DNA of 62,771 bases from Pyrinomonadaceae bacterium (GCA_035649995.1 DASRIM010000061.1:1-62771), one strand, 5' to 3'; positions 44,101-60,167 are shown, counted from the first letter of the stretch. Numbers and translations are program-made. The notes: generated from the letters alone by a model not told the origin.

Positions 44101-44218
44101 AACACAACCCACCAAAACGGACGCGTTGCGTCAAGCCGCATTGACGTTGATGAAGAACCCCGAAACGCGTCATCCATTCTACTGGGCCGGATTCGTGTTG
44201 GTCGGCGACGGCAATTAA
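41189..44218 (+). CDS. Exported NTF2-like + TPR + CHAT (caspase-like) domain protein
   Basis: 1009 aa. The signal peptide is MLFPFRAALSLVILNLGLITSAFAQ. It has a long TPR array, and the CHAT His/Cys contexts are ILHFTTHG and LAVLSACETARG. Confidence 0.9.
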   Translation: MLFPFRAALSLVILNLGLITSAFAQSQALTSTPASVADEALVRALTEQYRQAMAAGDVQAMRKFWRPESPNMAPHLKYYKNVFSHTRIDFLRPEVTQAEVTGDKAVSQLTSDERRLDKKTGAIMLTYDPFRGACHTFEWTRTNLGWQLEREFLFQDELATRLEAAKSDRERDEILEKEKRFVNITLVAALGTKALRHSTRTDYETATRYVQLQQLISERIGDPVGLAGAYLNAGIVKHAQEEHEEGLPLTLKALAFYESAGVKRGMSLALENSSNFYRAMGDFRRAFDAAQKSLRLAEEEQHRRNMMMALAELGIIYGHQNNAEQALAHYERAFAIAQDMGDALTIATLRHDIALQYKRFGQYERAFGTYAQVLKELEGYRDQGGTAMVRDQIGRVLTDQKKYEEALSYHRQALAGLEAANKRGATVVTLNNMAVVYLLQEKYEDALAVSERAVAVSREKGRKGELAFALTNLGYSQLGTNRLAEARQTFTEAVSLVESMRAQTAGGVQEQQRYFEAGLPAHHGLLSVMVKQNDAPEALAFAERAKARALLDILQQGRVRVLKAMTAQEQDEERRLKSELTQLNRQLSQLTQTDKADADRVAPIETRLEKARLDYEAFQNKLYATHPELRIQRGEAPIVNANELAELLPDTQTVLLEYVVTEHNTYLFAVTKERDKAEAAVQVYTLPIKREELAKQIEFFRKQLATRDLGFRPAAVKLYDLLLKPAQTQLRGKTSLIIAPDSNLWDLPFQALANNSGRYLIEDASISYAPSLTVLREMTKRRKSQPANLAPATLLAFGNPVFGRESGNHAGPTLRGRNLDPLPEAEQEVRALGKLYGAARSKIYIGADAREDRLKSEAGHARILHFTTHGTLNNASPMYSHLTLAEGGANDDGLLEAWELMQLDLKADLAVLSACETARGRIGAGEGMIGFSWAMFIAGVPSIVVSQWKVESAGTRDLMVNFHRSLIGAAKTQPTKTDALRQAALTLMKNPETRHPFYWAGFVLVGDGN

Positions 44219-44272: not shown

Positions 44273-46177
44273 TTAGTTAACCGTGTGCGGCAGCACTGGC
44301 CCAGTCGCTTTACCGAACAACTGAAGCTTCGAGCGCTGGCAGAACGGAATCTGTGGATTGTTCTGTCCGCAACCCAGCAACCCTGGATCCACCGCTACGA
44401 ACGTTACAGCGTGGAGGTTGGGCAGCGGCACCTGGAACGGAGTCGACTGCGCCGGACACGATCCGTTGGCCCACATCGACGGCACCGTGCCGTGTTGCGT
44501 CCACACGTTCGTCGAATGATCGAGGGTCCAGACGGCCACTGCTCGCTGTTCCGAATTGCAGTTGAAGACTGCGATTTTGCTGAATCCCAGCGGCTCCGGC
44601 GTTGGTGTCGGCGTCGGCTGCGGCTCTGGCTTGGTTCGTCCGCACACTGTCGAAGGTGTGCCCGAAACGCCCCAGATATTCTCCGCCTCGACCGTGAAAC
44701 AGTACCGAGTGTCAGGTTCGAGACTCGTGTAGGTCGCCTGTTCAGTGTCGGCCGGCCTGATCGTGCGTGTCAGGAGGTTCGGCTCACCGAAGTACGTGAA
44801 GAACCGGCGTTCGTCGCTGCTGTTGTCATCCCACGCAACGACCATCGACGTCTCGGTTGTGCTCTGGATTCGCAGGTTCGTCGGCGCGTTAGGCGGTGCG
44901 AGCGGCGGTTGATCACTCGATTTCGCCACCCAGATATGCGTCTCGCCGAAAGCGACGAGATCCGCCATGCCGTCACCAGTCACGTCGCCGACATAACGCG
45001 GCGCCCAACCGGGATCGCTCTCGCTGTATGGATAATCGGCAGCGACCAACTCGCGGAGGACGCCACGTATGCTGTTCGGGAATCCATTTGGACCATTGAG
45101 CGAGCGATACACTGACTCCTGTCCATAGCCGACGATGTCCTTGTAACCGTCGCCGTTGAGATCGGCGATGTAACGCGGATGAAGGTTAACTCTCCAGCCG
45201 TCGTTGTAACCGAAGTCTTCAATGACGAGCTGCGGGGCACTGAAAGCACCGCCGGTCGAAAGCGAGATCCACACGCCGTCGTCGCCGAAACCGATGATGT
45301 CGTCGAAGGTGTCGTTGTTGATGTCAGCCATCATGCGCGGATGGCGCGTGACTTGCCAACCGCCGCCCTGGATGGCGAACTCTGTCAGCACTAACTGCGG
45401 CGAATTGAAACCGTTGCCGTTCGCGAGTGCGATCCACACGCCGTATTCGCCAAAGCCGACGATGTCCTGCATTTTGTCGCCGTTGAGATCGGCGGTGGTG
45501 CGGATGTGTCTCTCGTTTCTCCAGCCCTGGAGATAGCCGAAATCGCCGACGGCGAAGAACGGCGCCGAGAACTCGCCCGATTTCATTGCGATTGAGGCCC
45601 AAACGCCGTGTTCGCCGAAGGCGAGGATGTCTTTTCGCGTGTCGCCATTGATGTCGGCCAACAACCGGACGTGTTTGTCGTTGCGCCAACCCTGATTGTA
45701 GCCAAAATCCGCGACCACGTAGTCGACGGTTCCGAAACCTGATCCGGTCGAGAGTGCGCGGAAGACGCCGTCGTTTCCAAAGCCGACGATGTCGTCCATC
45801 TGATCGCCGTCGACGTCGCCCATAGTGCGCACGTGTAGATCGGCGCGCCAACCGGTCTCGTAACCGAAATCCTTGAGCACGAAATTAGCCGGGCTTGGCG
45901 GCGGCGCTATGGCAAGCCAGGTGCCGTGAATGCCGAAGCCTACGATGTCCTGTTTTTTGTCGCCGTTGACGTCCGCGAGCATGCGCGGGTATTCGGGTCC
46001 CCAACCTTGTCCCATGGTCAGTTCCCGCACCCACACAGTAGGCAAGGAAAAACGTTGTTCCGTTGTCTGTGCGGTTGCTACCTTTTCCGGTTTGCCCAGC
46101 CAGGCGACGCCGGCTAACAACAGCGCGAGAATTACCCAATGAATGCGAATGAATTTTCTGAACTGCGAAATCTTCAT
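44273..46177 (-). CDS. Exported FG-GAP/VCBS-like 7-blade repeat protein + FN3 + Cys-containing C-terminal domain
   Basis: It has seven ~48-aa repeats (DFGY..GWR...H.R..AD.NGD...DIVGFG..GVW) followed by FN3-like PTNLRIQSTTETSMVVAWDD. An AAGGAG SD is present. Confidence 0.8.
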   Translation of the reverse strand: MKISQFRKFIRIHWVILALLLAGVAWLGKPEKVATAQTTEQRFSLPTVWVRELTMGQGWGPEYPRMLADVNGDKKQDIVGFGIHGTWLAIAPPPSPANFVLKDFGYETGWRADLHVRTMGDVDGDQMDDIVGFGNDGVFRALSTGSGFGTVDYVVADFGYNQGWRNDKHVRLLADINGDTRKDILAFGEHGVWASIAMKSGEFSAPFFAVGDFGYLQGWRNERHIRTTADLNGDKMQDIVGFGEYGVWIALANGNGFNSPQLVLTEFAIQGGGWQVTRHPRMMADINNDTFDDIIGFGDDGVWISLSTGGAFSAPQLVIEDFGYNDGWRVNLHPRYIADLNGDGYKDIVGYGQESVYRSLNGPNGFPNSIRGVLRELVAADYPYSESDPGWAPRYVGDVTGDGMADLVAFGETHIWVAKSSDQPPLAPPNAPTNLRIQSTTETSMVVAWDDNSSDERRFFTYFGEPNLLTRTIRPADTEQATYTSLEPDTRYCFTVEAENIWGVSGTPSTVCGRTKPEPQPTPTPTPEPLGFSKIAVFNCNSEQRAVAVWTLDHSTNVWTQHGTVPSMWANGSCPAQSTPFQVPLPNLHAVTFVAVDPGLLGCGQNNPQIPFCQRSKLQLFGKATGPVLPHTVN

Positions 46178-46305
46178 GTGTACTCCTTTTTCACTTCCTC
46201 AGTGAGAATTAATTGTTGAGCAAGCGCGAGCGCCTGCTTGTATTGGATGGAAGTTGATGAAAGGAGACGGATATTACCGCGTAGGGTGTTTTGACCGGGT
46301 GTGTT

Positions 46306-47604
46306 CTAACGTCGCAGCGTCTGGACGTGACGAAGGAGATTGCGAGCGAGGTCGGAGTTGGGGTTTCCTTTTTGGACCAGGCGAAACTCCTGTTCAGCTT
46401 CGCGCAACAGTCCGGCGTCGGCGTAAAGGAGACCGAGTGTGAGATGTGAAGAGCCGTAAGCGCGACGCGCGTTCGCCAGCTCATTCGCCTTCGCTTGATC
46501 GATGACGCGGAAGTTCGCCTGCGGCGCAGGAGGACGCGGCGAGGTCACTGTCTCCGCGTCCTTTGTCGCTTTCACTTGCCACGCATAGACTTTTCCGCGT
46601 GGAAGAGTTGTGGTCCATGTGAGCGTGTTGAGTTGCGGGCTCGACGTCACGAGGTTGAACTTCTCGTCATAAACTTCGACGACGTAGCCAGTCGCGCCCG
46701 GCATCGCGGACCAACGAAACGTTGGTTGAGCTGTCAGCAGTACCGTTCCCAGCGGTTCGACTACTCGGAATTCACTTCCTTCGCTGTCTGATCCCATCAA
46801 CGAGCTGGACGCGCGCGTCAGTCCCTCGAGCTGCGATGATTTTTCGACTCTTCCGGTGCTCAGCGCGTTCTTCAACAGGTTCTGATAAGCGGGCGGAAGA
46901 TTGTCGGCGCCTGAGAGTTTTCCCTGCTGGTCCAATGTCAGGACGCGTGCGCCGTCGTTGAGTTGCGCAACGACAGGCGCGGGCTGCGGTTGCGTTGGCG
47001 CGGAGCCGGGCTGTGACGGCGGCGGCGCGGGCTGCGATGCCGGCGCTGGAGTCTCCGCAATTTGCGGTTCTGGTTGCTGTTGCGTGTTGCGCCAAACGAG
47101 CCATGCGACTGTTGCTAACACGAGCAGAGCGAGTGCGGCTCCGGCAAATGCAGGCGCCGGAGCAACTCGAAAAGGCGCCGTAAGAAATCCGAAAAAGCCG
47201 CGACGACCTTCTTTAACTTCCTCAACAGCGACCGTCGCCGGCCGATACTCGCGATCGATCGACGGAGCGATCTCGTTTCGAAATGCGCGCAGGTCGGCGA
47301 CGGCGAGCACGCACTCGTGACAGTGACTCAGGTGATCCTCGGCCATTTGCAGCGCCTCGCCGGAGAGATCACGATCGACGTAAGCGGCTGCTTCCTGCAT
47401 CGTCAGGTGCGCGGCGCTTTCGCCTGTCTCGTCGAAGACCTGTGACCGCAGCTCGAAGAATGCGCCGTCGCCGTTGTGCGTGCCCTCGATCCTTTGCTCG
47501 CAAACGTCGCAATCACCTAAGTGATCGCTAAGGGAGAGCAGTTCCGCGGCAGGGAGCTGGCGGCGGAAGTAGGCCTCGATCTGTTGTTCAGTCAGATGTT
47601 CCAC
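46306..47604 (-). CDS. Anti-sigma factor (two zf-HC2-like motifs, one TM, extracytoplasmic domain with a TPR-like end)
   Basis: The motifs are HLGDCDVCEQRI and HLSHCHECVLAV. The TM helix is AFAGAALALLVLATVAWLVW and is followed by a Pro-rich linker. It starts with GTG and lies directly downstream of a sigma gene. Confidence 0.7.
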   Translation of the reverse strand: MEHLTEQQIEAYFRRQLPAAELLSLSDHLGDCDVCEQRIEGTHNGDGAFFELRSQVFDETGESAAHLTMQEAAAYVDRDLSGEALQMAEDHLSHCHECVLAVADLRAFRNEIAPSIDREYRPATVAVEEVKEGRRGFFGFLTAPFRVAPAPAFAGAALALLVLATVAWLVWRNTQQQPEPQIAETPAPASQPAPPPSQPGSAPTQPQPAPVVAQLNDGARVLTLDQQGKLSGADNLPPAYQNLLKNALSTGRVEKSSQLEGLTRASSSLMGSDSEGSEFRVVEPLGTVLLTAQPTFRWSAMPGATGYVVEVYDEKFNLVTSSPQLNTLTWTTTLPRGKVYAWQVKATKDAETVTSPRPPAPQANFRVIDQAKANELANARRAYGSSHLTLGLLYADAGLLREAEQEFRLVQKGNPNSDLARNLLRHVQTLRR

Positions 47605-47692
47605 GACAGTTTTTCTTTTAGGCCCGCAACCGGGGTCCCGGCGGGGTCTACTTCTATAAGTTGGCGAAAGTTGTGGCGTATTACTATCGTCA

Positions 47693-48721
47693 TCAAATAA
47701 ACCCTTTCAACCGCCGCGCCAGCCGTTCGCGCCCTGATTTTCGGGCATTTATCACTTGCTGGCGCGTCAAACCCAGCAATTCCGCGATACGTGAATCCTC
47801 CATCGGCAGTTCATTCCAAATCTCGGCGAGGCTTTCGGCTGACATCTCGAGCGCGGCCGCAAGTTGGCGGACAGTTGCGATTCCCATCGCCGGAAAGAGC
47901 GTGATGCAGGCAAACCCGCTCGACTCTTTCAGGTTCAACAACAACGCCGCCCGCTGATTTCGCGGAAGCTGTTCCAACTCCTCCCACAGCCGGCGCAGAA
48001 ACATCTTCTTCTCGATCTTCCACGCCGGATCGGGTTCGACCGTGTCAGGGACCAACGCCACTTCGTCTTCATCGTCGGCGAGCGATTCGATGGGTTGATC
48101 GCTAATCCCCAGCAGTGTGACCACCGCGCTCACCAACTCGTCAAACTCAACCGGGCTGCCCGCGTGGTTGAAAATCGCAGCGATCGTGTCCGCCAAATCC
48201 TTGCCGCTCTTTGATACACGTAACTGCGCCGGCAGTGGATCAGGCAACTGCCGGATCGCGGGTTTATTTTGTTCCTGCCACGCCGCGAAGCCCGCGACGA
48301 GTTGGCCGTCCGGGTTTTGCCACAACGCGAAACCGCGTTGCCGAGTGACGAGGTAGTGAAGCCTGTTCTTGAGCGCGTGCCGTTCCGGAAACTGGCGGCG
48401 CATCCAGCGCGCGCAGGTGCGATGCGCGATCACGGCCGCGATGCCGCGCAGGTCGGCGATCGGGTTTCCGTCGGGCAGTTTGCGAAACTTCTGCAACAGC
48501 GCGAGTAGTTGCAGCAGCACTTCCTGATAGATGTCGTCCGCTTCCGCGCGTTGAGTTTCGCGATAAGAACTGAGACGCAGTTTGAAACGAATGACGCCTT
48601 TGATTACCGGTTCGGCGTGATCGTTGATCAGTTGAAGGAGAATCTCTTCGGCCCGTTGGTCGCTGGTCTCGACTAAGAGAGGTTCGAGCAACGCGTCGAT
48701 CTTTACCGGCGACTCCTTCAT
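47693..48721 (-). CDS. Sigma-70 family (ECF-like) factor with an unusually long inter-domain region
   Basis: 342 aa. It is region-2-like at aa ~55-110 (DDIYQEVLLQLL...AAVIAHRTCARWMRRQ) and region-4-like at the C-terminus (LEQLPRNQRAALLL...IAELLGLTRQQVINARKSGRERLARRL). About 130 aa lie between the two regions. Confidence 0.72.
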   Translation of the reverse strand: MKESPVKIDALLEPLLVETSDQRAEEILLQLINDHAEPVIKGVIRFKLRLSSYRETQRAEADDIYQEVLLQLLALLQKFRKLPDGNPIADLRGIAAVIAHRTCARWMRRQFPERHALKNRLHYLVTRQRGFALWQNPDGQLVAGFAAWQEQNKPAIRQLPDPLPAQLRVSKSGKDLADTIAAIFNHAGSPVEFDELVSAVVTLLGISDQPIESLADDEDEVALVPDTVEPDPAWKIEKKMFLRRLWEELEQLPRNQRAALLLNLKESSGFACITLFPAMGIATVRQLAAALEMSAESLAEIWNELPMEDSRIAELLGLTRQQVINARKSGRERLARRLKGFI

Positions 48722-48760
48722 CAGTTTTAGCGTGCTTTCAGGGTTTGGTTTTGTCAGTCC

Positions 48761-49774
48761 TCAGTAAATGTTACCGCCTGCTTGCGTCGAAGTGACGACG
48801 CCGTTGTTCACGTTCAATGTGTAAGCGACTCCGCCCGTGCCGGTCCAGGTCGAAAAGTTGAACGTTCCTCCTTGCGGGACTTTGTAGACGGCGATGTTCA
48901 GGTAGGTCAACGGCACGCCGCTGGCGACGACCTGGGCCGGACCAGGTGCCTGGAGGAAATAAGCTGCTCCGTTGCCGACCATCGTCGTCGCGCCGTTGGG
49001 CAGGACCAGCAGTGCGGTTTCTTCGTCGACGCCGATGCCGCGCGGCTGCGTGGCCCAACCGTTGTTTACGATGCGAGCGAGGAAGACGAGTGATCTTCCG
49101 AGTCGATCGCGAGTCACGAAATGCGAGTCGTAAAGCTTGTTCGCGCCGAGCGCGGATTGAAACAGATCTCGATCGAGTGTGACGTAGCGATGAAAAGGAT
49201 CGGCAAGGGCCTGCGTTGAAGTTACCGAGCCTCGCTCGCCGGTGTAGATAAACTGGCTGAGCACGGCGAGGCCTGCGCTCGTTCCTCCGACCGGCGCGAG
49301 TTTCGAATTCAGTAGAAAATTAACGCCTGACTCGACGGCGGTTCCGCGCCACAGTGCGACGTAAGTTGACTGATCGCCGCCGGCGATCCACAGCGCTTCC
49401 GCGTTTCGGATCTGATCGCTGACGTACTGCGCGTTGGCGCCGTTCACGTTGCTGATAATGATGGTTTCGACGGAGTCCATCTGCGGGCAGAGCCCCTGGA
49501 TGTAAGGATTGTAGGCGTCGGTGCCGGAGGTCCTTATGACGAGGAAGTCGCCGCCGCCGGCGCGCTGGCACATCCACTCAAACGCCGCATCGACGTCGGT
49601 CCCGCCACCCATCAGCGCGAGCCCCGGACTGAGGGTGGGCGACGGCGGCGCGTCCGCTGGATTGCCGGCGACGAACGACTTGAACCCGGATTTAGGCGGG
49701 GCGGCTAGCGCGGATATTGTGAACAGGCAAATCGCGGCGAGCACGGAGAATACACGTAGAGAATTGGTGAGCAT
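48761..49774 (-). CDS. Secreted peptidase S51 family (cyanophycinase-like)
   Basis: It has a signal peptide (AICLFTISALAAPP) and a nucleophile-elbow context (APVGGTSAGLAV). LWIAGGDQS is also present. An AGGAGG SD lies upstream. Confidence 0.75.
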   Translation of the reverse strand: MLTNSLRVFSVLAAICLFTISALAAPPKSGFKSFVAGNPADAPPSPTLSPGLALMGGGTDVDAAFEWMCQRAGGGDFLVIRTSGTDAYNPYIQGLCPQMDSVETIIISNVNGANAQYVSDQIRNAEALWIAGGDQSTYVALWRGTAVESGVNFLLNSKLAPVGGTSAGLAVLSQFIYTGERGSVTSTQALADPFHRYVTLDRDLFQSALGANKLYDSHFVTRDRLGRSLVFLARIVNNGWATQPRGIGVDEETALLVLPNGATTMVGNGAAYFLQAPGPAQVVASGVPLTYLNIAVYKVPQGGTFNFSTWTGTGGVAYTLNVNNGVVTSTQAGGNIY

Positions 49775-49876: not shown

Positions 49877-51193
49877 ATGAAGTATCTAACAGTCTGTTTA
49901 TTATCGCTCGTCTTACTACTCCCGCCGGTCGCATTCACGCAAACGAAAGAGACGTCGCAGAGCGATACTGTAAAAATCTGCAAGGGACTCGCGATTCCCG
50001 AGGGGTACGTTATCGTCGGGTACGGCGCGTCATCCGCCTGCCCCAACGGCGCGTACTTGCTGAAGAAAGAGGAAGCGCCACAATCACCACAATCGCGGCC
50101 GCGTCGGACGGACGACAGGGCGCTGGATTCAACTCCCGCTAAATCGCCGAGTGGGGAATCAGTCAAAGAACCGAAATTGCGGTCCACATCAGCAGCCGTT
50201 CCGCTCGATGCTCCGGAGCGTCCGTCTGCCGGGCCGGAAAAGACCGAAGAGGTCAGCGAAGGCGATGTGCTGCGCATCGATACCAACCTCGTCACCGTCC
50301 CAGTCAGCGTGATGGACCGTCATGGCAAGTTCATTTCCGACCTGCGGCGCGAACAGTTTCATGTCTTCGAAAACGGAGTCGAACAGAAGATCGTCCACTT
50401 CGAACCCACGGACAATCCCTTCACAGTCGCTTTGCTGTTGGACACGTCAGGATCGACCTTCTTCCACCTGTGGGAGATCAAGGAAGCGGCGATTGCTTTC
50501 GCAAAGCAACTGCGGCCGCAAGACCGTGTGCTCGTAGTGACGTTCGACAGGTTGGTAATGCTGTTGACCGAAGCCACGAACGATCTCAACGTCGTCACGG
50601 AAGTCGTCCAACGCGACGCGATCACCGGTTTCTCCACACGGCTTTACGACGCGGTCGATCTCGTCATCCAGCGGCGTCTGAACAAAATTCCCGGCCGCAA
50701 AGCCATCGTGCTGTTTACTGACGGCGTCGATACGTCGAGCTACGCGGCGACGTACAAGAGCACGCTGCGCGTAGTGGATGAGTTGGACGTGCTGATCTAC
50801 CCGGTCCAGTACGACACGATCGACTTCATCAACGCGACGCTGGATACGAAAGCGTTGAGTGAGCTGAGTGATCGAAACAGAGGGTCGTCTCGATCGGACC
50901 CGGTCCAACGCTTGACCCGCCCCGAATACAAACTCGCGGATCAGTATCTCCAACAACTCGCGGATAAGACCGGCGCCCGTCTTTACCAGGCCAACGACCG
51001 CACACAACTGGCTGCTGCTTTCTCCAAGATCGCCGGCGAGCTGCGCTGCCAGTACAGCATCGGCTACTACCCACCTGAAACGGTCCAAACCGACGAGCGG
51101 CGCGAGATCAAAGTCCGCGTGGACCAGCAGGACACGGCAGTCAGAGCACGCAACAGCTACATCCGCCGCATGTCCGGCAAGCCTGGGCCATAG
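49877..51193 (+). CDS. VWA-domain protein of the TIGR03436 'VWFA-related acidobacterial' type
   Basis: It has a signal peptide. LRIDTNLVTVPVSVMDRHGKFISDLRREQFHVFENGVEQKIVHFE...ALLLDTSGS is the family signature as I recall it. Confidence 0.85.
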   Translation: MKYLTVCLLSLVLLLPPVAFTQTKETSQSDTVKICKGLAIPEGYVIVGYGASSACPNGAYLLKKEEAPQSPQSRPRRTDDRALDSTPAKSPSGESVKEPKLRSTSAAVPLDAPERPSAGPEKTEEVSEGDVLRIDTNLVTVPVSVMDRHGKFISDLRREQFHVFENGVEQKIVHFEPTDNPFTVALLLDTSGSTFFHLWEIKEAAIAFAKQLRPQDRVLVVTFDRLVMLLTEATNDLNVVTEVVQRDAITGFSTRLYDAVDLVIQRRLNKIPGRKAIVLFTDGVDTSSYAATYKSTLRVVDELDVLIYPVQYDTIDFINATLDTKALSELSDRNRGSSRSDPVQRLTRPEYKLADQYLQQLADKTGARLYQANDRTQLAAAFSKIAGELRCQYSIGYYPPETVQTDERREIKVRVDQQDTAVRARNSYIRRMSGKPGP

Positions 51194-51256: not shown

Positions 51257-51282
51257 GGAACTCCTGTTCCGTTGTGGCGTTA
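51257..51282 (+). promoter_or_regulatory. ECF-type promoter GGAAC-N16-CGTTA upstream of the ECF sigma gene
   Basis: GGAAC lies at 51257-51261, followed by a 16-nt spacer and CGTTA at 51278-51282. This is 45 nt upstream of the sigma ATG. The -35 is part of the palindrome GGAACtcctGTTCC. Confidence 0.5.
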
Positions 51283-51326
51283 TACTGCTGGCCTTTCAAA
51301 ACTGGACACTCCTACTCGCCGGCGGA

Positions 51327-51911
51327 ATGCAGATGGTCAAGAAATCCAAGGCAGTTGAGGTTGAAGAACGGTTCAACGCCGTCGTCGAAGAGTTCGGCAC
51401 GCTACTCCGCCGGGCCATCGTCCGCTTCTGCCCGCACGACAAAGGCTTGCATTTCGACGATATCGAGCAGGAGGCGCGACTTCGCCTCTGGCGCGCGCTT
51501 CAGGCTGAGAGGGAAGTCGCGAACTATGCGTCTTATCTCTATAGGATTGCGGCGACGGCGACGATCGATGCCATGCGCCGGATCCAGGCACGCCACGAAG
51601 AGCAATTGGAAACCTTGATTGAACAAAGGATCGACGAAGGCGAAATCATGATCGCGCCGGCGCCGGTCAAGGATTCGCCTGAACGCCTGGCCGAGTCTCG
51701 CGAGGCGGTCGGTAAGGTTATGTCAGCCGTCGAAAAACTGCCTGACGAACAACGCCGAGCCGTCGGACTGTACCTGCAAGGCATGACCAGTCAGGATGTT
51801 GCGGATCTGATGGGGTGGACCGAACCGAAGTCGCGAAACCTCGTTTACCGTGGTCTAAAAGAGTTGCGCAAGTCACTTCGCGAAGAGGGAATGGACTATG
51901 AGATTGGATAG
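51327..51911 (+). CDS. ECF (group IV) sigma-70 factor
   Basis: 194 aa. It has region 2 (DDIEQEARLRLWRAL...YLYRIAATATIDAMRR) and region 4 (LPDEQRRAVGLYLQGMTSQDVADLMGWTEPKSRNLVYRGLKELR). Confidence 0.9.
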   Translation: MQMVKKSKAVEVEERFNAVVEEFGTLLRRAIVRFCPHDKGLHFDDIEQEARLRLWRALQAEREVANYASYLYRIAATATIDAMRRIQARHEEQLETLIEQRIDEGEIMIAPAPVKDSPERLAESREAVGKVMSAVEKLPDEQRRAVGLYLQGMTSQDVADLMGWTEPKSRNLVYRGLKELRKSLREEGMDYEIG

Positions 51912-52896
51912 CGAAGGGTTGCGAGAGCTTTACCAGACAGGGACAGCTCGCTCAGCTCGTCCGTCAGACGACAATTGCCTGACCGAAGACATGTTGGCCG
52001 GCGCGGCTGCCGGAGAGTTGAACCAGTCAGAACGCGAGAAGGTCGCCGATCATCTCGTGACCTGTTCCGACTGCGCAAAAGAGTATCTGGCCATAAAGTC
52101 GCTCAAATCATGGGCCCATGACGAGCCGGCGAACGACAGCACTCCACTAATTGCGTTGCCGAGTTCTGAAAACGGACGGCGTTACCGGACCAATGTTGAC
52201 GAAACACCCGCTCGTTCTCGAACCGTTTCGTTCTATTTCCCGTACGCGGTTGCCGCTGCGGCAGTGGTCCTGAGTCTGGCGTTGGGAGCGCTGTTGATCT
52301 CGAAATCACGCGAGAACCAGCGTCTGCTCGCCGATGCGAATAATCGACAATCGACAAACAACACCGGCGACAGCAAGACCGCGGAAGAGCTCGCTCAATC
52401 CCGCCGTTTACTTGAAGAAACCACTCGCCGCGCCGAACAAGAAAGTGCGGCGAGACGCGTCGCGGAAGAAGAGCTTGCCAGGCGAGATGCCGCTCAGAAT
52501 CGCAACAACCAACGCTCGCCGGAACGCTCAACCGAACGCTCGACTCCCGACGTTAACGTTCCGATCATCGACCTCAACCCCGAGGACGCCGGACGTGGAG
52601 GTCAGAACCAGACGGCAACCACGATTCAACTCCCTTCGGATACAGACCTCTTCACGTTGATCCTGAACCTGAGCGGCGACGACTCTAGCCAGGCATATTC
52701 ACTCGAAGTAACGGACCGAAACAACAGGACCATCTGGACCAGCCGCAATTTACGCAAGAGCCCTTACAACAATTTCACCGTCGCAATGCGTCGCCGCTTG
52801 TTTCCCGGCGGCGAGTATCGTCTCAAGATCTATGGTTTGCGTGGCGGACGTCGCGAGTTGATCGAGGAGTACGCCATACGCCTGCTGTATCAATAG
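51898..52896 (+). CDS. Anti-sigma factor (zf-HC2, one TM, extracytoplasmic C-terminal domain)
   Basis: It overlaps the sigma gene by 14 nt. The zf-HC2 motif is HLVTCSDCAKEYLAIKS and the TM helix is FYFPYAVAAAAVVLSLALGALLI. Confidence 0.72.
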   Translation: MRLDSEGLRELYQTGTARSARPSDDNCLTEDMLAGAAAGELNQSEREKVADHLVTCSDCAKEYLAIKSLKSWAHDEPANDSTPLIALPSSENGRRYRTNVDETPARSRTVSFYFPYAVAAAAVVLSLALGALLISKSRENQRLLADANNRQSTNNTGDSKTAEELAQSRRLLEETTRRAEQESAARRVAEEELARRDAAQNRNNQRSPERSTERSTPDVNVPIIDLNPEDAGRGGQNQTATTIQLPSDTDLFTLILNLSGDDSSQAYSLEVTDRNNRTIWTSRNLRKSPYNNFTVAMRRRLFPGGEYRLKIYGLRGGRRELIEEYAIRLLYQ

Positions 52897-52907
52897 GAAC
52901 CAAGACC

Positions 52908-55688
52908 ATGAAAAGACCTCATCTCGCCGGCTGGATGATCGCGTCGCTGCTGGTCCTGACGTTCGCCACGCACGCGTTCACACAGGAAACGTCGCAAGCG
53001 CTCACGGCGGCCAAGGCAGCGTTCGCGGAAGCTGAACGAGCACGTTCGCAAAGACCTCCGAAGCGAGAGGAAGCGATTCAAAAGTATGAAGAGGCTGTCG
53101 CCTTCTATCGCACCGCCGGAGAACGCGCGATGGAAGCCACGGCTCTAACAAACATCGGCGTGCTCTATAACCAGTTAGCCGACAGATTGAAAGCACTCGA
53201 ATATCTGAACCAGGCGCTCTCGCTTCACAAGCTCGTCGGCAATCAACGAGAAGAAGCCCGCACCCTTACCTACATGGCTTACGCGTCGACTGCTTTACTC
53301 GAGCGACAGCAGGCACTCGAATACTTCAATCAGTCGCTTCGCATAAGCCAGGCGCTCGGTGATGGCGCGCTCGAAGCCGCTACGCTCGTGGATATCAGCG
53401 GGATTTACAGCGCGCTCGGAGAATCGCAGAAGTCGCTTGATTACATGAACCTTGGGTTGATGAAAAGCAGGGCCGCAGGCAATCGCTCACTGGAAGTCCG
53501 CGCCATAACGAATATCGGCAGTCTCCATCGCCAACTCGGAGATGATTCAAGAGCGTTGGAGTATTACAACGAGGCCTTGCCCATCTACCAGGCGCTTGGT
53601 GAGTGGTATGGCGAAGCACTGACACTTACTAACATCGGTTGGTCTTATAGCCACTCGAAAGAGTGGCAGAAAGCGCTGGACCACTACCACCTCGCACTGG
53701 CGATATTCAAAGGCAAGGACGATCGCCGTTGGACCGAAGGAATGGTGCTCACCAGCATCGGTATCGCACACCACGCGTTAGGAAACACGTCCGAGGCGCT
53801 CGCATACCTCAATGAAGCGCTGCCGATACATAAATCCCTTGGGAATCAGGGCTGGGAAGGTCACACGCTCACCGGGCTGGGCCGCGTGTATGACTCATTG
53901 CGCCAGCCGGAGAAGGCCCTCGATTACTTCCAACAAGGCCTGAAGGTCTACCGGACAATGGTGAACCACGGCGCTCAAGCCAACAACCTTTTGGCAATTG
54001 CGCGTATTGAACGCAAACGCGGCAACCTGAGTGAAGCTCAGCAACTTGCCGAGACGGCCCTCGACATTATCGAATCGCTCCGCGCGAGGGTTGTCAGCCA
54101 GGAGTCGCGCGCTGCTTTCTTCGCGTCCAAACGCGAGCTTTACGAGTTCTATGTAGACCTGTTGATGCAACTGGACCAGAAGACGCCCGCGACCGGCCGC
54201 GATGCCGAGGCGTTGCGGGCAAGCGAACGAGCGCACGCTCGCGGTCTGTTGGATACGTTGACGGAATCACGTGTCGATATTCGACAGGGAGTCGACTCGC
54301 ACCTGCTGGAGCGCGAGCGTGCGTTGCAACGGCAGATCAACGACGAAGAACTGCGGCGGACGCGCCTCCAAAGCGGAAAACACACGCAGGAAGATCTCCA
54401 GGCAATCGAGAAACGCGTAAACCGGTTGCTGGAAGACTACAACACAGTTCAATCGGAAATTCGGCTGCGCAGCCCTCGCTACGCTGCACTGACTCAGCCT
54501 GTGCCTTTGACGCTGAAAGAGATTCAACAGCAAGTGCTTGACGACAAGACGATGCTGCTGGAGTACGCGCTCGGGGAAGAGAAGAGCTATCTCTGGGTCG
54601 TCACGCAGTCGGAACTGAAGAGCTTCGTGCTTCCGAAACGTTCGGTGGTCGAAGCAGCGGCGCGGCGTGTTTACGATCTATTGATCGTCAGCAACAGGAC
54701 GCAGGCCAGACGCCCGGCGGAGCTAGCGCTTGCCGAACTGGGCCGGATGATTTTGGGCCCGGCCGCCGCGCTGTTAAATAAAGAGCGGCTCGTGATCGTT
54801 GCGGACGGCGGTTTGGAGTATGTGCCGTTTGCGGCGCTGCCGGTGTTGTCTGCACCCGCTTACGAGCCATTAATCGCACGCCATGAAATCATCAGTCTGC
54901 CTTCAGCGTCAGTCTTGAACGTGCTCCGCCGTGAGATGCCGAATCGTCAACGTGCTCCGGAAGCACTCGCCGTCCTGGCCGATGCGGTTTTCCAAAGCAA
55001 CGATGCGCGCCTCGCACAGCGGCGCGGCAATGCACACTCCCCGGCAGACAGTCCGGTGCTGACGCAACGGGACCTCATACGTTCAGCCGGCGAAGTCGGG
55101 GTTCTCAACTTCGAGAGACTGCCGTTCAGCAGACGCGAAGCTGATGCGATAGTCGCCAAAGCCGGCGGAGTTCGCATTCTCAAGGCGCTGGATTTCACCG
55201 CCAGCCGCGAAACGGTCTTCAAGTCGAAGTTGGACCAGTACCGGATCGTTCACTTCGCCACGCACGGACTACTCAACAGCCAACGTCCAGCCCTCTCCGG
55301 TATCGTGCTTTCGCTCTACGACGAGCAGGGCCGGCCCATCGACGGTTTCCTGCGCGCGCACGAGATCTACAATCTCAAGTTGAACGCCGACCTGGTGGTC
55401 CTATCCGCGTGCCGCACTGCTCTGGGAAGACAAATCAGAGGCGAAGGACTCGTTGGGCTGACGAGAGGTTTCATGTACGCCGGCGCGCCGAGCGTCGTCG
55501 CCAGCCTTTGGGACGTGAGAGACGAAGCTACGTCAGAGTTAATGAGCCGCTTCTACGAGGGAATGTTCAAGGATGGAAAGCGGCCGGCGGCTGCCTTGAG
55601 GGCGGCGCAGACTTCGCTCTGGAAAGAAAAGCGATGGTCTGCGCCGTATTACTGGGCCGGGTTTGTTCTCCAGGGCGAATGGCGGTGA
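52908..55688 (+). CDS. Exported TPR + CHAT (caspase-like) domain protein
   Basis: 926 aa. It starts 11 nt after the anti-sigma stop. The signal peptide is MKRPHLAGWMIASLLVLTFATHAFTQ, and it has a TPR array. The CHAT contexts are IVHFATHG and LVVLSACRTALG. Confidence 0.9.
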   Translation: MKRPHLAGWMIASLLVLTFATHAFTQETSQALTAAKAAFAEAERARSQRPPKREEAIQKYEEAVAFYRTAGERAMEATALTNIGVLYNQLADRLKALEYLNQALSLHKLVGNQREEARTLTYMAYASTALLERQQALEYFNQSLRISQALGDGALEAATLVDISGIYSALGESQKSLDYMNLGLMKSRAAGNRSLEVRAITNIGSLHRQLGDDSRALEYYNEALPIYQALGEWYGEALTLTNIGWSYSHSKEWQKALDHYHLALAIFKGKDDRRWTEGMVLTSIGIAHHALGNTSEALAYLNEALPIHKSLGNQGWEGHTLTGLGRVYDSLRQPEKALDYFQQGLKVYRTMVNHGAQANNLLAIARIERKRGNLSEAQQLAETALDIIESLRARVVSQESRAAFFASKRELYEFYVDLLMQLDQKTPATGRDAEALRASERAHARGLLDTLTESRVDIRQGVDSHLLERERALQRQINDEELRRTRLQSGKHTQEDLQAIEKRVNRLLEDYNTVQSEIRLRSPRYAALTQPVPLTLKEIQQQVLDDKTMLLEYALGEEKSYLWVVTQSELKSFVLPKRSVVEAAARRVYDLLIVSNRTQARRPAELALAELGRMILGPAAALLNKERLVIVADGGLEYVPFAALPVLSAPAYEPLIARHEIISLPSASVLNVLRREMPNRQRAPEALAVLADAVFQSNDARLAQRRGNAHSPADSPVLTQRDLIRSAGEVGVLNFERLPFSRREADAIVAKAGGVRILKALDFTASRETVFKSKLDQYRIVHFATHGLLNSQRPALSGIVLSLYDEQGRPIDGFLRAHEIYNLKLNADLVVLSACRTALGRQIRGEGLVGLTRGFMYAGAPSVVASLWDVRDEATSELMSRFYEGMFKDGKRPAAALRAAQTSLWKEKRWSAPYYWAGFVLQGEWR

Positions 55689-55692
55689 CTTC

Positions 55693-57000
55693 TTATAACG
55701 CGTTCAAGAAGGCGACGAGGTCGGCCCGTTCCTGATCGGTGAAGACGAACCCGAGATGTCTTTCGTAGTGGAGGACTACGTCGGTGAGCGTCGGCGCGAT
55801 GCCGTTGTGGAAGTACGGCGCACGGGCAGCGAGGGCTCGGATGGTCGGCGTCTTGAACCTGCCGAGATCGTTCCAGAGTCCCGTGATGTTGCCGCGGCCG
55901 GCATCGGTTAGCTGGCGAGTCTCGCCGGTGGTCCTGTTGCGGAACGTGTACAAGGGAAGATCCGGAGTGCGTGCCTCAGCGGACGCAACGCGAACGTCGA
56001 ACAAAAGGTTGTTGATGCTCGTGCCGTTGTTCGCGGAGTTGTGACAGCCGTTGCAGCTTCGGCCGTTGGCATTTGTGGCGTTGAATATCGCCTGGCCGCG
56101 CGCGATCTGTGCTCGTCTCTGGTTCGCGTCGTTGACCCATGCGTCGAAGAGATCGAACCGGCCGGCAGTCTTCTGTATGTTCGACAGTTCCTCTGGACCA
56201 CCTTTGGCGCCGTCGGAGTCGAGCCTGCCAACGCCGGGAACGATCAACTGCGCCGTCGAAAGCGATCGTTCGAAATTAACGATGTCGTCGATGACTTCCG
56301 GCGGCGCCGGCAAGCCTTGTTGAGCGCCGGTAATGTTGCGCTGCGCCTGGTTTCGCAGACCGGCGATCAGATCCAGTCCCACGCTGTTGCCGCCGTCCCA
56401 GTTAACCGTCGAGCTGCCCTGGGCGAAATTTATCGTCGGCATCACGCGCCGCCAGTGTACGAGTCGATCGAGGCTGGCGAACCCATGCGGATCTTCGACG
56501 GCGATCAACTCCCACTCAGAATTTGGACGCGGAGTGCCGCCTCTGCGGAAAACGCCACGGCTCAGCAGCATGCTGTACGCGGCGAGTCGCGCGGCCGGCG
56601 TGGAGACGTCCATGTTCGGATTGTTAGCGTCGAGTGTATTGAAGACCGGATGAGTTCCGCCTGTTTGATCGAAGAGATCTTGTAATGTGCCGGGGTTGAT
56701 GCTCCAGGCGTCTTCCGGGATATGACATGAAGCGCAGCTTCGTCCGTTTGAGCCTTGGGGCTGGAAGTATTCACCGGTGAGATCGACGGATCCCTGCGTG
56801 CTGAAGGTCGCTGCTTTTCCGCCGGGGTTTGGGTGCGGAAGGTTATTCGGGAGCTGATCCGGGTTCATTGAACTTACCTGGGCCACCAGGGCTGAACCGG
56901 AATCGAAAACGAGTGCTGAGGCAATACCGAGTAAGGCAATCGCAGCGAGTAGCACCCGTGTCGCGCGAGTTTTGGAAAGAGCAATTCTTCTTTGGGTCAT
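55693..57000 (-). CDS. Di-haem cytochrome c peroxidase family protein
   Basis: It has two CxxCH motifs (CASCH, CNGCH). FKTPTIRALAARAPYFHNGIAPTLTDVVLHY is typical of CCP/MauG. The ATG at 57000 has an AAGGAG SD. Confidence 0.85.
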   Translation of the reverse strand: MTQRRIALSKTRATRVLLAAIALLGIASALVFDSGSALVAQVSSMNPDQLPNNLPHPNPGGKAATFSTQGSVDLTGEYFQPQGSNGRSCASCHIPEDAWSINPGTLQDLFDQTGGTHPVFNTLDANNPNMDVSTPAARLAAYSMLLSRGVFRRGGTPRPNSEWELIAVEDPHGFASLDRLVHWRRVMPTINFAQGSSTVNWDGGNSVGLDLIAGLRNQAQRNITGAQQGLPAPPEVIDDIVNFERSLSTAQLIVPGVGRLDSDGAKGGPEELSNIQKTAGRFDLFDAWVNDANQRRAQIARGQAIFNATNANGRSCNGCHNSANNGTSINNLLFDVRVASAEARTPDLPLYTFRNRTTGETRQLTDAGRGNITGLWNDLGRFKTPTIRALAARAPYFHNGIAPTLTDVVLHYERHLGFVFTDQERADLVAFLNAL

Positions 57001-57093
57001 ACCTAATCTCCTTATTAACAAACATCGGCTAAGAGGAATGACGCATCCGCGCAAACTTTCCTCTCAGCCGATGAATGTTGTTAAGGAGTTAGG

Positions 57094-58572
57094 TTACTTA
57101 CTCTTCAGAGCGGTCTCCGCTTTCAGGACTGTTTCGATCGCGGATTTGACGCTTTCATAGGAGTTGTCGGAAACGCGCTTGCCGTTGATGAAGATCGACG
57201 GCGTGCCGTTGACGCCAAGCTTGCGTCCATCCATCAGATCGCGTTGGACCTTCTCGGCGAGCTTGCCGCTGTCGAGCGACTTGTCGAACTTCGCGCGGTC
57301 CAGGCCGACCTCGGTCGCGTACTGCCGCAGTTTGTCAACGCTGAGCGCTGACTGATTACGGAAGAGCACGGCGGCGTATTCCCAGTACTTACCCTGCTCG
57401 CGCGCGGCCTCGGCTGCTTCCGCGGCCTTGTACGCGTTGGCGTGCTGAGACAGCGGGAAGTCGCGCACAACGAGCCGCACGCGATCGCTATACTCGCTCA
57501 CGATGCGCTCGAGCACTGGATGTTGACGCGCACAGCCCGGGCATTCGAAATCGGTAAACTCTACGATCGTGACGACGGCGTTCGGATTTCCTTTGACAGG
57601 CTGATCGTCTGTCGCGATCGAAAGGACAGGCGCCACAGGCGCAGTCAGATTGATCTCAACCTTCGACGCGCGGCGCAACAGATCGGCATAGGCAACAGTC
57701 GCTTCGCGCTCTCTGCGGTCTTGTAGATAATGAATTATTTGAGCTTTGGTCTGGGCGAAATCACCGCTGATCCTTTCCTTGTTCTGATCATAAAAGGCCT
57801 GCGCATCGGCCTCAGTCACCTTCGCAACTCTCACTCCTACCTCGCTGTCGAGCAGCGCCCGCGTGGTGACGCTTTTCTTCTGCGCTTCGTGCGCGAGCAG
57901 CGTGTCGTTGACCTTTAGTTCGAGATCCTGCTTACGCAGTGCGTAGACCTGCTCCTGCACGCTGAAGATCAACGGGCGCAAACTGTCTTCGATGTTGCCC
58001 GCCGTGATCTGCTTGTCGTTGACCGTCGCCAAGACCTTCGCGCGATCCGCACTGGTGGCCGGTGGCGCGGTTGGCTTGGCGATGACTTTCACCTGCGCGG
58101 CGGCGCGCAGCCGCTCGGCAAGTTTTCGAGCCTCGTCCTGCTGACGCTGATAGCGGAGATACTCGATGATGTTGTTTTTCTCAGCCGCGAACTCGGCTTT
58201 GATCTGGGCCTTGTTCTGTTCGTAGAAGGCCTGCGCCTCCGCGTCGGTCGGCTGTTGGACCTTGGCGATGACCTCGTCCTTGATGACTTGCGAAGGCGAA
58301 ACGCCGCGCTTCTTCGCTTCGGCTTCGAGCAGGATCGAATCGATCTGTAGATCGAGCTCGCGTGCGCGTGCATCGACGACTTGCTGTTGCAACGCTTTCA
58401 CGCGCGCCTGCGTTTCGGGACTCAGATCCTGTTTCGTGATTTTGACTCCGTTTACCGTGCCGAGTATTTCCGGTAGCGGCTTATCCTCGCACCCGCAGTC
58501 CTGTGCCGACACAGGAAAGGTAGTAACGAACATGAGCAGAAGGGCGAATAAAGTAAGTTTCATAAGTTCCAT
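57094..58572 (-). CDS. Exported DsbA-family thiol:disulfide oxidoreductase with duplicated SurA_N-like chaperone region
   Basis: The Trx motif is FTDFECPGCARQHP. There are two similar N-terminal segments (GTVNGVKITKQDL... and ATVNDKQITAGNIE...), each ending in a QAFY(E/D)QNK context. A signal peptide is present. Confidence 0.82.
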   Translation of the reverse strand: MELMKLTLFALLLMFVTTFPVSAQDCGCEDKPLPEILGTVNGVKITKQDLSPETQARVKALQQQVVDARARELDLQIDSILLEAEAKKRGVSPSQVIKDEVIAKVQQPTDAEAQAFYEQNKAQIKAEFAAEKNNIIEYLRYQRQQDEARKLAERLRAAAQVKVIAKPTAPPATSADRAKVLATVNDKQITAGNIEDSLRPLIFSVQEQVYALRKQDLELKVNDTLLAHEAQKKSVTTRALLDSEVGVRVAKVTEADAQAFYDQNKERISGDFAQTKAQIIHYLQDRREREATVAYADLLRRASKVEINLTAPVAPVLSIATDDQPVKGNPNAVVTIVEFTDFECPGCARQHPVLERIVSEYSDRVRLVVRDFPLSQHANAYKAAEAAEAAREQGKYWEYAAVLFRNQSALSVDKLRQYATEVGLDRAKFDKSLDSGKLAEKVQRDLMDGRKLGVNGTPSIFINGKRVSDNSYESVKSAIETVLKAETALKSK

Positions 58573-58586
58573 TTCATCTGTTGAGA

Positions 58587-60167
58587 TTAGTTGTTGTTGA
58601 CCCAGCCGCTGGAGACGAACTCCCTTTTTGCCGGATCGATCGAGAGGACGTAAGCGCCCATCGCGCCTACGCGACGGTTTGGGCCAAAAGTAATGCTCGG
58701 CGTCACTCCGGTGTCGTACTCGTAGAGTCCTTCAAGCGCCGTGACGAGCTTTTCGCGGCTCAGATCTCGTCCGGCGCGCTTTAACCCTTCGGTGAAGATC
58801 TTCGCGGCCGCGAATGCGTTCAACTGTGACGCGATATGTCCCGGGGGAAACCTGTACTTCTCCTGGAGCGCGCGCAGTTCGGCCAATCCCGCCGGTGTCA
58901 CATCGTTCGGGACTGTCGGGAAGGCCAGGAAAACATGGTCCTTGAAACTCAACGGCACCGTGTTGACCAGGCCTCTGCTCGTAAACGCGCCGAGAAGAAA
59001 AACGTGCGGCGTCCAACTCGCGGCTGCTGCTGCGTTGATGAACGCTGCTTCCTCACCGCTCGCGCCGAGAAAGAACACAGCTTCAGCGCCTTCAGCCTTC
59101 AGAGCACCAGCGATCGCGGTCGCGTCAAAGCGTTCGCTCGAGAACGCCTTCTTTGTGACAGAGGTCCAGCCGTTTTTTCGCGCCTGATCCTCTATCGCCG
59201 CGACGGCCGCAAGCGCCAGTTCCTTGTCCGAGTGGACGATTGCGAGCCGCGACTTTTTCAACTCGGGTTTGTTGGCCGCGAAGTTCAGCAGCGCGCGCGC
59301 CTGCTGGCTCGTGCCAGGCAACAGGTAAAAGAGCGTGCGATATTCCTGAGCACTGGTTTGCGGTAGCAATGTGACCGGACCCATGAAAGGTATTTCGGCC
59401 GACTGCGTCACGGCGGCCAGCTCTTTTTCAGCGCCGGCAGTGAGACCGCTGACGATGGCGAACATCTCGCCATTCTCGATCTGCGTTTTGACGTTAGCTG
59501 CCGTCGCGGCTGCGTCGGCGCCGGCGTCGATGGGTTTCAACTCGATACGTCGATTGTAGATTCCGCCTTTGTCGTTGACGTTTGCGAAGTACGCGGTCAG
59601 CACGTCCTTCATTGCCGTGCCGATCTCCGCAAGCGGACCGGTCTTCGGCAGGATCGTGCCGATCGTGATGGTCTCTTCCGTAAGTCCCGGATCGCGGTCG
59701 GTCTCAATCCGTTTCAGGTACGCGACGAGGTCGGCCAGGTCCTCAGGCGAGATCTGATAGCGCGGCATCGCCACCGCCAATTGGTTTCCGGAGGGATCCG
59801 TGCCGTGGACGAGTGATAGAGCAAACAGCTTTTCATCAAACGGTCCATGCTTGCGGCCGTTCGGATGAGTGTGGCCGTAGGGCTTGAGCATGTTGGCCCA
59901 CTGCAAGTTTCCTGCGGTCACGCCGCCTTCTGTCTTGCCTTCGCCGCGAAGACCGTGACAGCCGGCGCATGTCACCGTCGAGGCGGGCACGTCAAGATCG
60001 CCGATCATCGCTTTGATCTCTTTTCCTGACGCGCTTTCGCCCCGCAGGTAGATCGCCTTTCCGCGCCGCTCGCCGGCCGTCAAGCCGCGATTGGCAAGTT
60101 GAGCGTAGGCTGCGACGCCGCTCAACAGAAGGAAAGCACTGAATAAAACCAGGATGCGGATGTTCAT
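58587..60167 (-). CDS. Fusion of a c-type cytochrome domain and a periplasmic (LivK-like, type I) solute-binding domain
   Basis: It has a signal peptide and a CAGCH haem site with AMPRYQ. This is followed by ITIGTILPKTGPLAEIGTAMKD...YNRRIELKPID, which is PBP-like. The start overlaps the SCO stop (ATGA). Confidence 0.78.
   Translation of the reverse strand: MNIRILVLFSAFLLLSGVAAYAQLANRGLTAGERRGKAIYLRGESASGKEIKAMIGDLDVPASTVTCAGCHGLRGEGKTEGGVTAGNLQWANMLKPYGHTHPNGRKHGPFDEKLFALSLVHGTDPSGNQLAVAMPRYQISPEDLADLVAYLKRIETDRDPGLTEETITIGTILPKTGPLAEIGTAMKDVLTAYFANVNDKGGIYNRRIELKPIDAGADAAATAANVKTQIENGEMFAIVSGLTAGAEKELAAVTQSAEIPFMGPVTLLPQTSAQEYRTLFYLLPGTSQQARALLNFAANKPELKKSRLAIVHSDKELALAAVAAIEDQARKNGWTSVTKKAFSSERFDATAIAGALKAEGAEAVFFLGASGEEAAFINAAAAASWTPHVFLLGAFTSRGLVNTVPLSFKDHVFLAFPTVPNDVTPAGLAELRALQEKYRFPPGHIASQLNAFAAAKIFTEGLKRAGRDLSREKLVTALEGLYEYDTGVTPSITFGPNRRVGAMGAYVLSIDPAKREFVSSGWVNNN

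Follow-up and report, generated by a model that had tools for sequence, protein, structure and literature searches.

A conserved cassette of an ECF sigma factor, a membrane anti-sigma factor and a secreted tetratricopeptide repeat-CHAT protein in a Pyrinomonadaceae bacterium

Introduction

The closest described counterparts of the system reported here join a sigma factor of the extracytoplasmic function (ECF) type to a protein made of tetratricopeptide repeats (TPRs) and a CHAT domain. In Myxococcus xanthus, the ECF sigma factor DdvS is paired with DdvA, a transmembrane anti-sigma factor with a CHCC zinc motif and a periplasmic TPR-CHAT part (PMC11506125; PMC6061681). The authors of that work propose that a signal induces the CHAT domain to cut a flexible linker, after which RseP acts; the RseP step was demonstrated for truncated DdvA, and CHAT proteolysis of DdvA was not observed (PMC11506125). 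This fused type has been reported only in Myxococcota and one Comamonas (PMC11506125). In type III-E systems, the TPR-CHAT protease Csx29 was shown experimentally to cut Csx30, an inhibitor of the ECF-like CASP-sigma (PMC10028731). Here, we analyze a cassette of three genes, which code for an ECF sigma factor, an anti-sigma factor and an exported TPR-CHAT protein, at positions 51257-55688 of a DNA stretch from a Pyrinomonadaceae bacterium (GCA_035649995.1 DASRIM010000061.1:1-62771). The whole 62,771-nucleotide stretch is referred to below as the window.

The cassette resembles DdvS/DdvA in its ECF sigma factor, its single-pass anti-sigma factor with CHCC-type zinc ligands, its predicted periplasmic TPR-CHAT region with His and Cys, and a flexible periplasmic linker. 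It differs from DdvS/DdvA in that the TPR-CHAT region is a separate secreted protein with its own gene and signal peptide, and in that the anti-sigma factor has an immunoglobulin (Ig)-like domain of its own outside the membrane. The phylum also differs, the window being from Acidobacteriota, and there is no match at sequence level. With type III-E craspases, the cassette shares a similar CHAT fold and the pairing of a TPR-CHAT protein, there a demonstrated protease, with the inhibitor of an ECF-like sigma factor; those systems, however, are cytoplasmic and activated by RNA-guided Cas7-11, and Csx30 is neither a zinc-finger nor a transmembrane anti-sigma factor. The envelope systems RseA/DegS/RseP and RsiW/PrsW/RasP offer a third comparison: an RpoE/SigW-type sigma factor, a single-pass anti-sigma factor and a site-2 protease, a homologue of which is encoded in this genome. 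In place of their PDZ serine protease or PrsW, the candidate site-1 enzyme here combines a TPR sensor with a cysteine protease of caspase fold.

A first-pass annotation of the window, made from its sequence, held that no characterized ECF system uses a CHAT protease. The publication of DdvS/DdvA (PMC11506125) and of Csx29/Csx30/CASP-sigma (PMC10028731) has made that statement outdated. Our literature search for a CHAT domain associated with a sigma factor in Acidobacteria found nothing.

Results

The three genes are kept together across relatives

The sigma, anti-sigma and TPR-CHAT genes lie on the plus strand exactly where the first-pass annotation had placed them, the first two sharing 14 nucleotides and the last two separated by 11 (Table 1). 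The 14-nucleotide overlap is present in every orthologous locus. Upstream, a terminator-like hairpin separates the cassette from preceding transcription. We read the three genes as a self-contained envelope signalling cassette of this bacterium.

Relatives were compared at two ranges of distance. The close and medium contexts (L014-L022 and L030-L033) have anti-sigma identities of 40 to 72%, while the remote contexts come from six relatives in other genera (26-34% identity) and were extended to 6-20 kb. In all 11 close or medium loci, the sigma, anti-sigma and TPR-CHAT genes stand in the same order between unrelated flanks. Each of the six remote family members has a full TPR-CHAT gene, adjacent in five and 4.8 kb away in one; the order is also seen in a partial seventh locus of this group, L019. 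Of the 18 relatives' loci examined, 17 have the TPR-CHAT gene directly beside that of the anti-sigma factor, at anti-sigma identities as low as 26%, and the remaining locus has it within 5 kb. The three genes thus form one conserved unit. In the first-pass annotation, lack of CHAT synteny in relatives had been named as grounds for giving up its proposal, and the CHAT gene is syntenic in them.

The organization of the remote loci is more varied. The trio is co-directional in three, and the anti-sigma gene is followed by the CHAT gene at a contig end in one. In two, the TPR-CHAT gene is convergent on the anti-sigma gene and thus not co-transcribed with it. One remote locus has a propeller protein in third position, with the TPR-CHAT gene 4.8 kb off. 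That adjacency survives these changes of operon structure speaks for a functional tie that goes beyond co-transcription.

Anti-sigma relatives in named genomes all belong to Pyrinomonadaceae metagenome-assembled genomes (Acidobacteriota); the genome that holds the window comprises 5.69 Mb in 556 contigs at 58% G+C. In metagenomes, the anti-sigma factor has more than 120 homologue clusters among the matches listed.

In the two most distant orthologous cassettes (L018:8102-14721 and L020:8072-14837), TPR-CHAT genes occur as a tandem pair, of which the second member is more closely related to the protein of the window. The first member in L020 is apparently divided, its TPR and CHAT parts forming separate genes.

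Table 1. Coordinates of the cassette, of linked features and of related gene sets in the same genome. Positions refer to the window unless a contig handle is given. aa, amino acids; pLDDT, predicted local distance difference test.
Feature	Position	Strand	Residues	Remarks
Terminator-like hairpin and T-run	51172-51188	+		End of upstream VWA gene
ECF-type promoter-like box	51257-51282	+		GGAAC-N16-CGTTA, continuing as GCGTTATACT
ECF sigma gene	51327-51911	+		194-aa open reading frame
Anti-sigma gene	51898-52896	+		332-aa open reading frame
Anti-sigma, helical cytoplasmic domain			5-73	AlphaFold
Anti-sigma, disordered stretch			76-109	AlphaFold
Anti-sigma, long helix holding membrane segment			114-154	AlphaFold
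Anti-sigma, second long helix			160-203	AlphaFold
Anti-sigma, disordered linker			204-222	AlphaFold
Anti-sigma, Ig-like beta sandwich	52564-52890	+	223-331	AlphaFold; pLDDT >90 outside loop 231-240
Anti-sigma, invariant Arg	52594-52596		R233	
TPR-CHAT gene	52908-55688	+		926-aa open reading frame
TPR-CHAT, signal peptide			about 1-25	N-terminal; in orthologues ends in AFA, before Q
TPR-CHAT, about 9 TPR pairs, then helical linker			53-393	AlphaFold
TPR-CHAT, CHAT domain	54729-55679	+	608-924	
TPR-CHAT, dyad His	55263-55265	+	H786	Or the equally invariant H782
TPR-CHAT, dyad Cys	55410-55412	+	C835	
Periplasmic di-haem cytochrome c gene	55693-57000	-		435 aa; convergent on CHAT gene, 4-nucleotide gap
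Conserved upstream element of di-haem gene	57035-57066	-		TGAGAGGAAA-N13-(T)GCGTCATTGC
Second secreted TPR-CHAT paralogue	41189-44218	+		Extra N-terminal segment; CHAT 35% identical to cassette CHAT
Window set				Split, periplasmic
Second split periplasmic set	C115			Sigma 200 aa, anti-sigma 334 aa, secreted CHAT 1128 aa
Cytoplasmic set	C19:7907-13929			Sigma, 203-aa zf-HC2 protein without membrane segment, TPR-CHAT without signal peptide
Fused sets	C519:11173-16350; C335:52-5104			ECF-like sigma, then 1183- or 1217-aa fused protein
Set with Ser/Thr kinase	C66:12387-17997			Sigma, membrane Ser/Thr kinase (626 aa), 121-aa gene, secreted TPR-CHAT with N-terminal beta domain

The anti-sigma factor ends in an Ig-like domain with a single invariant arginine

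Residues 30-60 of the anti-sigma factor match zf-HC2 in Pfam (23.3 bits against a cut-off of 22.2), and none of C27, H52, C56 and C59 varies across 48 orthologues. The H-x3-C-x2-C motif with its upstream ligand places the protein among the class I zinc-binding anti-sigma factors, and its gene, which overlaps the sigma gene and is coupled to it in translation, is arranged like that of a co-transcribed cognate anti-sigma factor. Hydropathy identifies one hydrophobic segment at 117-135, which corresponds to a transmembrane segment at about 114-136. The zinc-finger domain and single membrane segment of the first-pass annotation thus stand, while the part outside the membrane measures about 196 amino acids instead of about 170.

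An AlphaFold model built from 48 sequences (pLDDT 78.8) divides the protein into the segments listed in Table 1. According to this model, the periplasmic part is a coiled coil followed by a disordered linker and an Ig-like domain. A juxtamembrane motif, RENQRL(V)A, is conserved. The Ig-like domain matches no Pfam family, DUF928 included, even at E values up to 10, and a Foldseek search against the PDB returned only generic Ig, cupredoxin and phage-baseplate folds.

Searching residues 216-332 against 1.84 billion representatives retrieved 965 clusters at E<=1e-3 and 233 at E<=1e-10. Throughout the 965 clusters, the domain is C-terminal in proteins of 240-360 amino acids, and 30 of 46 sampled members match zf-HC2. 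Across these 46 diverse members, mean column identity is 28%, and the only invariant residues are the zinc ligands H52, C56 and C59 together with R233. This arginine is conserved also in the remote relatives of the anti-sigma factor. It is part of the motif PQ-x-NVPI-x-DL-x-P-x(3-4)-R-G/S, with which the Ig-like domain starts, and sits on a loop that follows the NVPIIDL strand and is modelled with lower confidence (residues 231-240, pLDDT about 62). The anti-sigma domain as delimited here, Ig-like and with R233 as its invariant arginine, is new, and the family has not been described before.

The TPR-CHAT protein has the features of a secreted caspase-fold protease

In Pfam searches, the third protein matches CHAT (PF12770) over residues 608-924 (E 1e-68), in addition to many TPR matches. 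Its AlphaFold model (pLDDT 80, predicted template modelling score 0.73) shows about nine TPR helix pairs, a helical linker and a CHAT fold, and its best fold matches are human separase, DdvA (8rw5, 8rot) and Csx29, with DdvA chains among the top ones. H782, H786 and C835 are invariant in 40 homologues. A CHAT domain with a His-Cys dyad behind a TPR superhelix is the arrangement of separase, Csx29 and DdvA, and the protein is a putative protease. The signal peptide, the nine or so TPRs and the intact His/Cys context had all been proposed in the first-pass annotation, and all were found. Some orthologues have an extra N-terminal beta domain. Conserved signal peptides also back the earlier prediction that the CHAT protein and the sensor domain of the anti-sigma factor occupy the same, periplasmic, side.

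We rejected sequence homology to DdvA, DdvS or Csx29. PDB sequence searches at E values up to 0.01 gave no match to any of the three, either for the cassette proteins or for the fused form encoded elsewhere in the genome, and the TPR-CHAT protein of the cassette is not recognized by the Csx29 model of NCBIfam. The likeness is at the level of the fold.

Related sets in the same genome covary in compartment and fusion state

There are 13 CHAT matches in the genome, and an iterated local profile finds 54 sigma-70-family reading frames. For nine of the CHAT genes the contig includes the upstream region, and six of these nine have a same-strand sigma gene at most 5 kb upstream, against a chance expectation of about 0.024 per CHAT gene (54 reading frames in 5.69 Mb; binomial P about 1e-8). 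These sets come in several formats (Table 1). The set on C115 is split and periplasmic like that of the window (C61b), and a profile of the Ig-like domain run against the genome hits exactly two proteins, the window anti-sigma factor and that of C115 (E 3e-8). The C115 anti-sigma factor has the same Ig-like domain and has lost the zinc ligands. The window CHAT domain shares 58% identity with its C115 counterpart, against 30-36% with those of the other sets. On C519 and C335, the fused proteins have the architecture of DdvA, with an N-domain in the cytoplasm, a single membrane helix, TPRs and CHAT; each fused gene is followed by a homologous 308-amino-acid gene. The C66 set may be a kinase-linked variant.

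The compartment of the two partners covaries: the window and C115 sets have both a transmembrane segment in the anti-sigma factor and a signal peptide on the CHAT protein, and the C19 set has neither. Fusions of anti-sigma factor, transmembrane helix, TPRs and CHAT in one polypeptide furnish a Rosetta-stone argument suggestive of direct interaction. Since the compartments match in every split case and fused forms exist, direct interaction is much likelier than a role of the protease as output only. We consider it highly likely that the TPR-CHAT protein and the outer domain of the anti-sigma factor are direct functional partners. That compartment and fusion state co-vary inside one genome is a new observation.

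These sets also bear on a rather unlikely alternative, in which the sigma/anti-sigma pair senses by other means and the TPR-CHAT protein is a co-expressed effector acting on other periplasmic or on foreign proteins. The layout of the genes as an operon behind a promoter that looks autoregulated would suit such an effector, and TPR-CHAT proteins are very numerous, many of them orphans. It is harder to see why adjacency would survive inversion to convergent order in two remote loci, why fused anti-sigma-CHAT proteins would exist, or why the cytoplasmic variant on C19 would lose the export signals of both partners together. The fused forms, in this genome and in DdvA, argue for a sensor or site-1 protease over a mere output.

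The sigma factor and its putative promoter

The sigma factor contains Sigma70_r2 (residues 20-87) and Sigma70_r4_2 (131-180) by Pfam, the domain composition of ECF (group IV) factors, and scores 67 bits against TIGR02937 (cut-off 42.9). NCBIfam places it in the general ECF superfamily only, with no equivalog reaching its cut-off, and the nearest solved structures are of the AlgU/RpoE/SigW type. The main text of the ECF classification paper makes no mention of CHAT. Orthologues are 54-87% identical, and there are more than 120 metagenome clusters, all at least 81% identical among the matches listed. The reading frame is 194 amino acids long as first annotated, but because orthologues have 192 residues and the alignment begins at residue 3, translation probably starts at the second ATG, at 51333, giving 192 amino acids.

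Upstream of the sigma gene, the first-pass annotation had proposed an autoregulated-type promoter with AAC...CGT logic, and the motif is there (Table 1). The window holds a single copy, a count reached in 12% of shuffled sequences, so the motif alone does not go beyond chance. Its putative function is suggested by comparison: the orthologous sigma genes in L014, L016, L017, L031 and L033 are preceded by a box of related sequence, GGA(T/A)C-N14-16-GCGTTA(T/A)A, and those in L015, L021 and L030 by a degenerate form, in intergenic DNA that is otherwise unalignable. The three most distant loci lack the box. The first-pass annotation had also suggested that further sites would define a regulon; we rejected a motif-defined regulon, since the genome-wide count of matches is about what chance gives.

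In four orthologous loci (L015, L017, L031 and L033), the sigma gene has a leader of about 100 nucleotides with a conserved hairpin (GGCGGTGAG...CTCCCGCC), placed after the CGTTATACT box and before the start of the gene. The leader in the window is shorter and lacks this hairpin.

A MauG-like di-haem gene is linked to the cassette

The product of the gene that converges on the CHAT gene is a protein, secreted or anchored in the membrane, with two CxxCH motifs, CASCH and CNGCH. It belongs to the bacterial peroxidase/MauG/MbnH superfamily, matching MauG and, in the PDB, di-haem peroxidases. The assignment holds at superfamily level only, its match to the MbnH-family model TIGR04039 (E 5e-17) reaching 62 bits against a cut-off of 363. 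With MauG, MbnH and BthA, it shares the two CxxCH motifs and the C-terminal signature of the family; it differs in scoring far below the family cut-offs and in having no known substrate-type partner, preMADH or MbnP, near it.

Linkage of this gene to the cassette is a new observation. It holds in seven of seven close loci with enough flank, and the gene is the most conserved of the set (79-91% identity in the six other loci). It directly follows the CHAT gene, convergently, in L016, L021, L030, L031 and L033, and lies upstream of the sigma gene, divergently, in L014. That the linkage survives rearrangement suggests a shared function. A similar di-haem peroxidase/MauG-like gene (586 amino acids, membrane-anchored) directly precedes the sigma gene of the C19 cassette. 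The more distant triads examined have no di-haem gene near them.

All seven loci share an element, TGAGAGGAAA-N13-GCGTCATTGC, upstream of the di-haem gene, beyond which the DNA is unrelated. The gene may be a target of the sigma factor. We make no claim that it belongs to the sigma regulon, however, as GGA stands 17 nucleotides before GCGT in this element, against 18-20 in the sigma box.

Such linkage could also reflect a redox switch, in which the zinc-finger domain frees the sigma factor on thiol oxidation, as in RsrA, with the di-haem gene as the target and the CHAT protein incidental. The invariance of C27, H52, C56 and C59 would fit, as would a di-haem gene kept in two orientations and beside the C19 cassette. 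We nevertheless regard this explanation as very improbable: it does not extend to the distant triads, it sits poorly with the different spacing of the two upstream elements, and it leaves both the universal CHAT partner and the conserved periplasmic domain unexplained.

Other genes in the window

At the window locus, the cassette has VWA, di-haem cytochrome, DsbA-like and binding-protein genes as neighbors. Two of these, upstream of the di-haem gene on the minus strand (57094-60167), encode a 492-amino-acid protein with a SurA_N-like part and a DsbA-like thioredoxin domain, and a 526-amino-acid cytochrome c fused to a Peripla_BP_6 binding protein. Neither is kept beside the cassette in relatives. 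DdvS/DdvA-type systems control a CBASS/CRISPR defence island next to them; no CBASS, CRISPR or other defence genes were found near the cassette, and PADLOC gives a generic TPR match only; a defence-island reading was rejected for lack of PADLOC support.

The second TPR-CHAT paralogue named in the first-pass annotation exists, but it does not share an operon with the sigma/anti-sigma pair near it. Instead it converges with a string of genes on the minus strand, and a gene for a 634-amino-acid FG-GAP/fn3 protein separates it from the anti-sigma gene. The string (44273-49774) comprises this gene, an S51 peptidase-like gene, a divergent 342-amino-acid sigma-like gene (Pfam matches only at E about 0.004-0.03) and a gene for a 432-amino-acid zf-HC2 anti-sigma factor. 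Further away, 38705-39493 encodes a secreted protein with a PEP-CTERM tail, and 37302-38528 a protein that combines ankyrin repeats, a membrane segment and a long tail rich in Pro and Thr.

Discussion

The cassette is probably a version of the proposed DdvS/DdvA mechanism that is spread over two polypeptides. The TPR superhelix would read a ligand and activate the CHAT domain, which would then cut the anti-sigma factor outside the membrane; the R233 loop and the disordered linker at 204-222 are candidate sites. Cleavage of the membrane helix by an RseP-type site-2 protease would follow, and cytoplasmic proteases would finish the degradation. The genome encodes an RseP-like M50 protease. Once freed, the sigma factor would use the GGAAC-N16-CGTTA box to drive transcription of its own operon. 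Cleavage of the anti-sigma factor by the TPR-CHAT protein is a step that we infer. For the full chain, from ligand-gated site-1 cut through RseP to activation of the sigma factor's own operon, we estimate a probability of about 0.4.

Several observations weigh against this chain. The spacer of the box varies from 14 to 16 nucleotides among orthologues, and GGAWC-N14-16-GCGTTA has 20 matches genome-wide against about 16 expected, which is at chance level. An anti-sigma relative occurs in only 7 of 151 family genomes in an even sample, and in none of four congeners. With metagenome clusters many and family genomes holding a relative few, the cassette is common in soil data and patchy in phylogeny. 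The invariant arginine is no proof of a scissile site and could be a binding contact, because CHAT cleavage specificity varies, with Arg cut by separase and Met or Leu by craspases (PMC11506125). Finally, CHAT autoproteolysis was not observed for DdvA (PMC11506125).

Some of these points would suit a partner that does not cleave. The TPR-CHAT protein could bind the Ig-like domain or its arginine loop as a co-sensor or shield, like RseB for RseA, or the anti-sigma domain could tether the protease to the membrane as a securin-like pseudosubstrate, with another site-1 protease or conformational signalling doing the rest. The evidence from synteny, fusion and compartment fits such a partner equally. 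TPR arrays typically bind extended peptides. The CHAT site of DdvA is moreover in a resting, incomplete state, with no autoproteolysis seen (PMC11506125). For pure binding, on the other hand, invariance of both His and Cys in 40 homologues is unexpected, and we judge a non-cleaving partner unlikely.

A broader proposal, which we hold to be improbable, is that the Ig-like domain with its loop arginine is a degron or docking module for a periplasmic, separase-like TPR-CHAT protease. It would define a widespread site-1 class (about a thousand clusters at 50% identity) with interchangeable split, fused and cytoplasmic formats. In this lineage, the switch would also be connected to a MauG-type di-haem enzyme, which might produce the signal, through oxidative modification of a periplasmic protein, or might itself be the response.

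For most ECF sigma factors, the signal sensed by the anti-sigma factor and the protease that starts its destruction are unknown. The Ig-like domain and its single invariant arginine provide a mutational target and a search profile for about a thousand anti-sigma factors now listed as hypothetical proteins. If the secreted TPR-CHAT protein is the site-1 protease, the hypothesis put forward for DdvA would gain a system of two proteins that can be purified and mutated separately. If this is true, caspase-fold proteases would be a general route of signalling across the envelope, outside phage defence.

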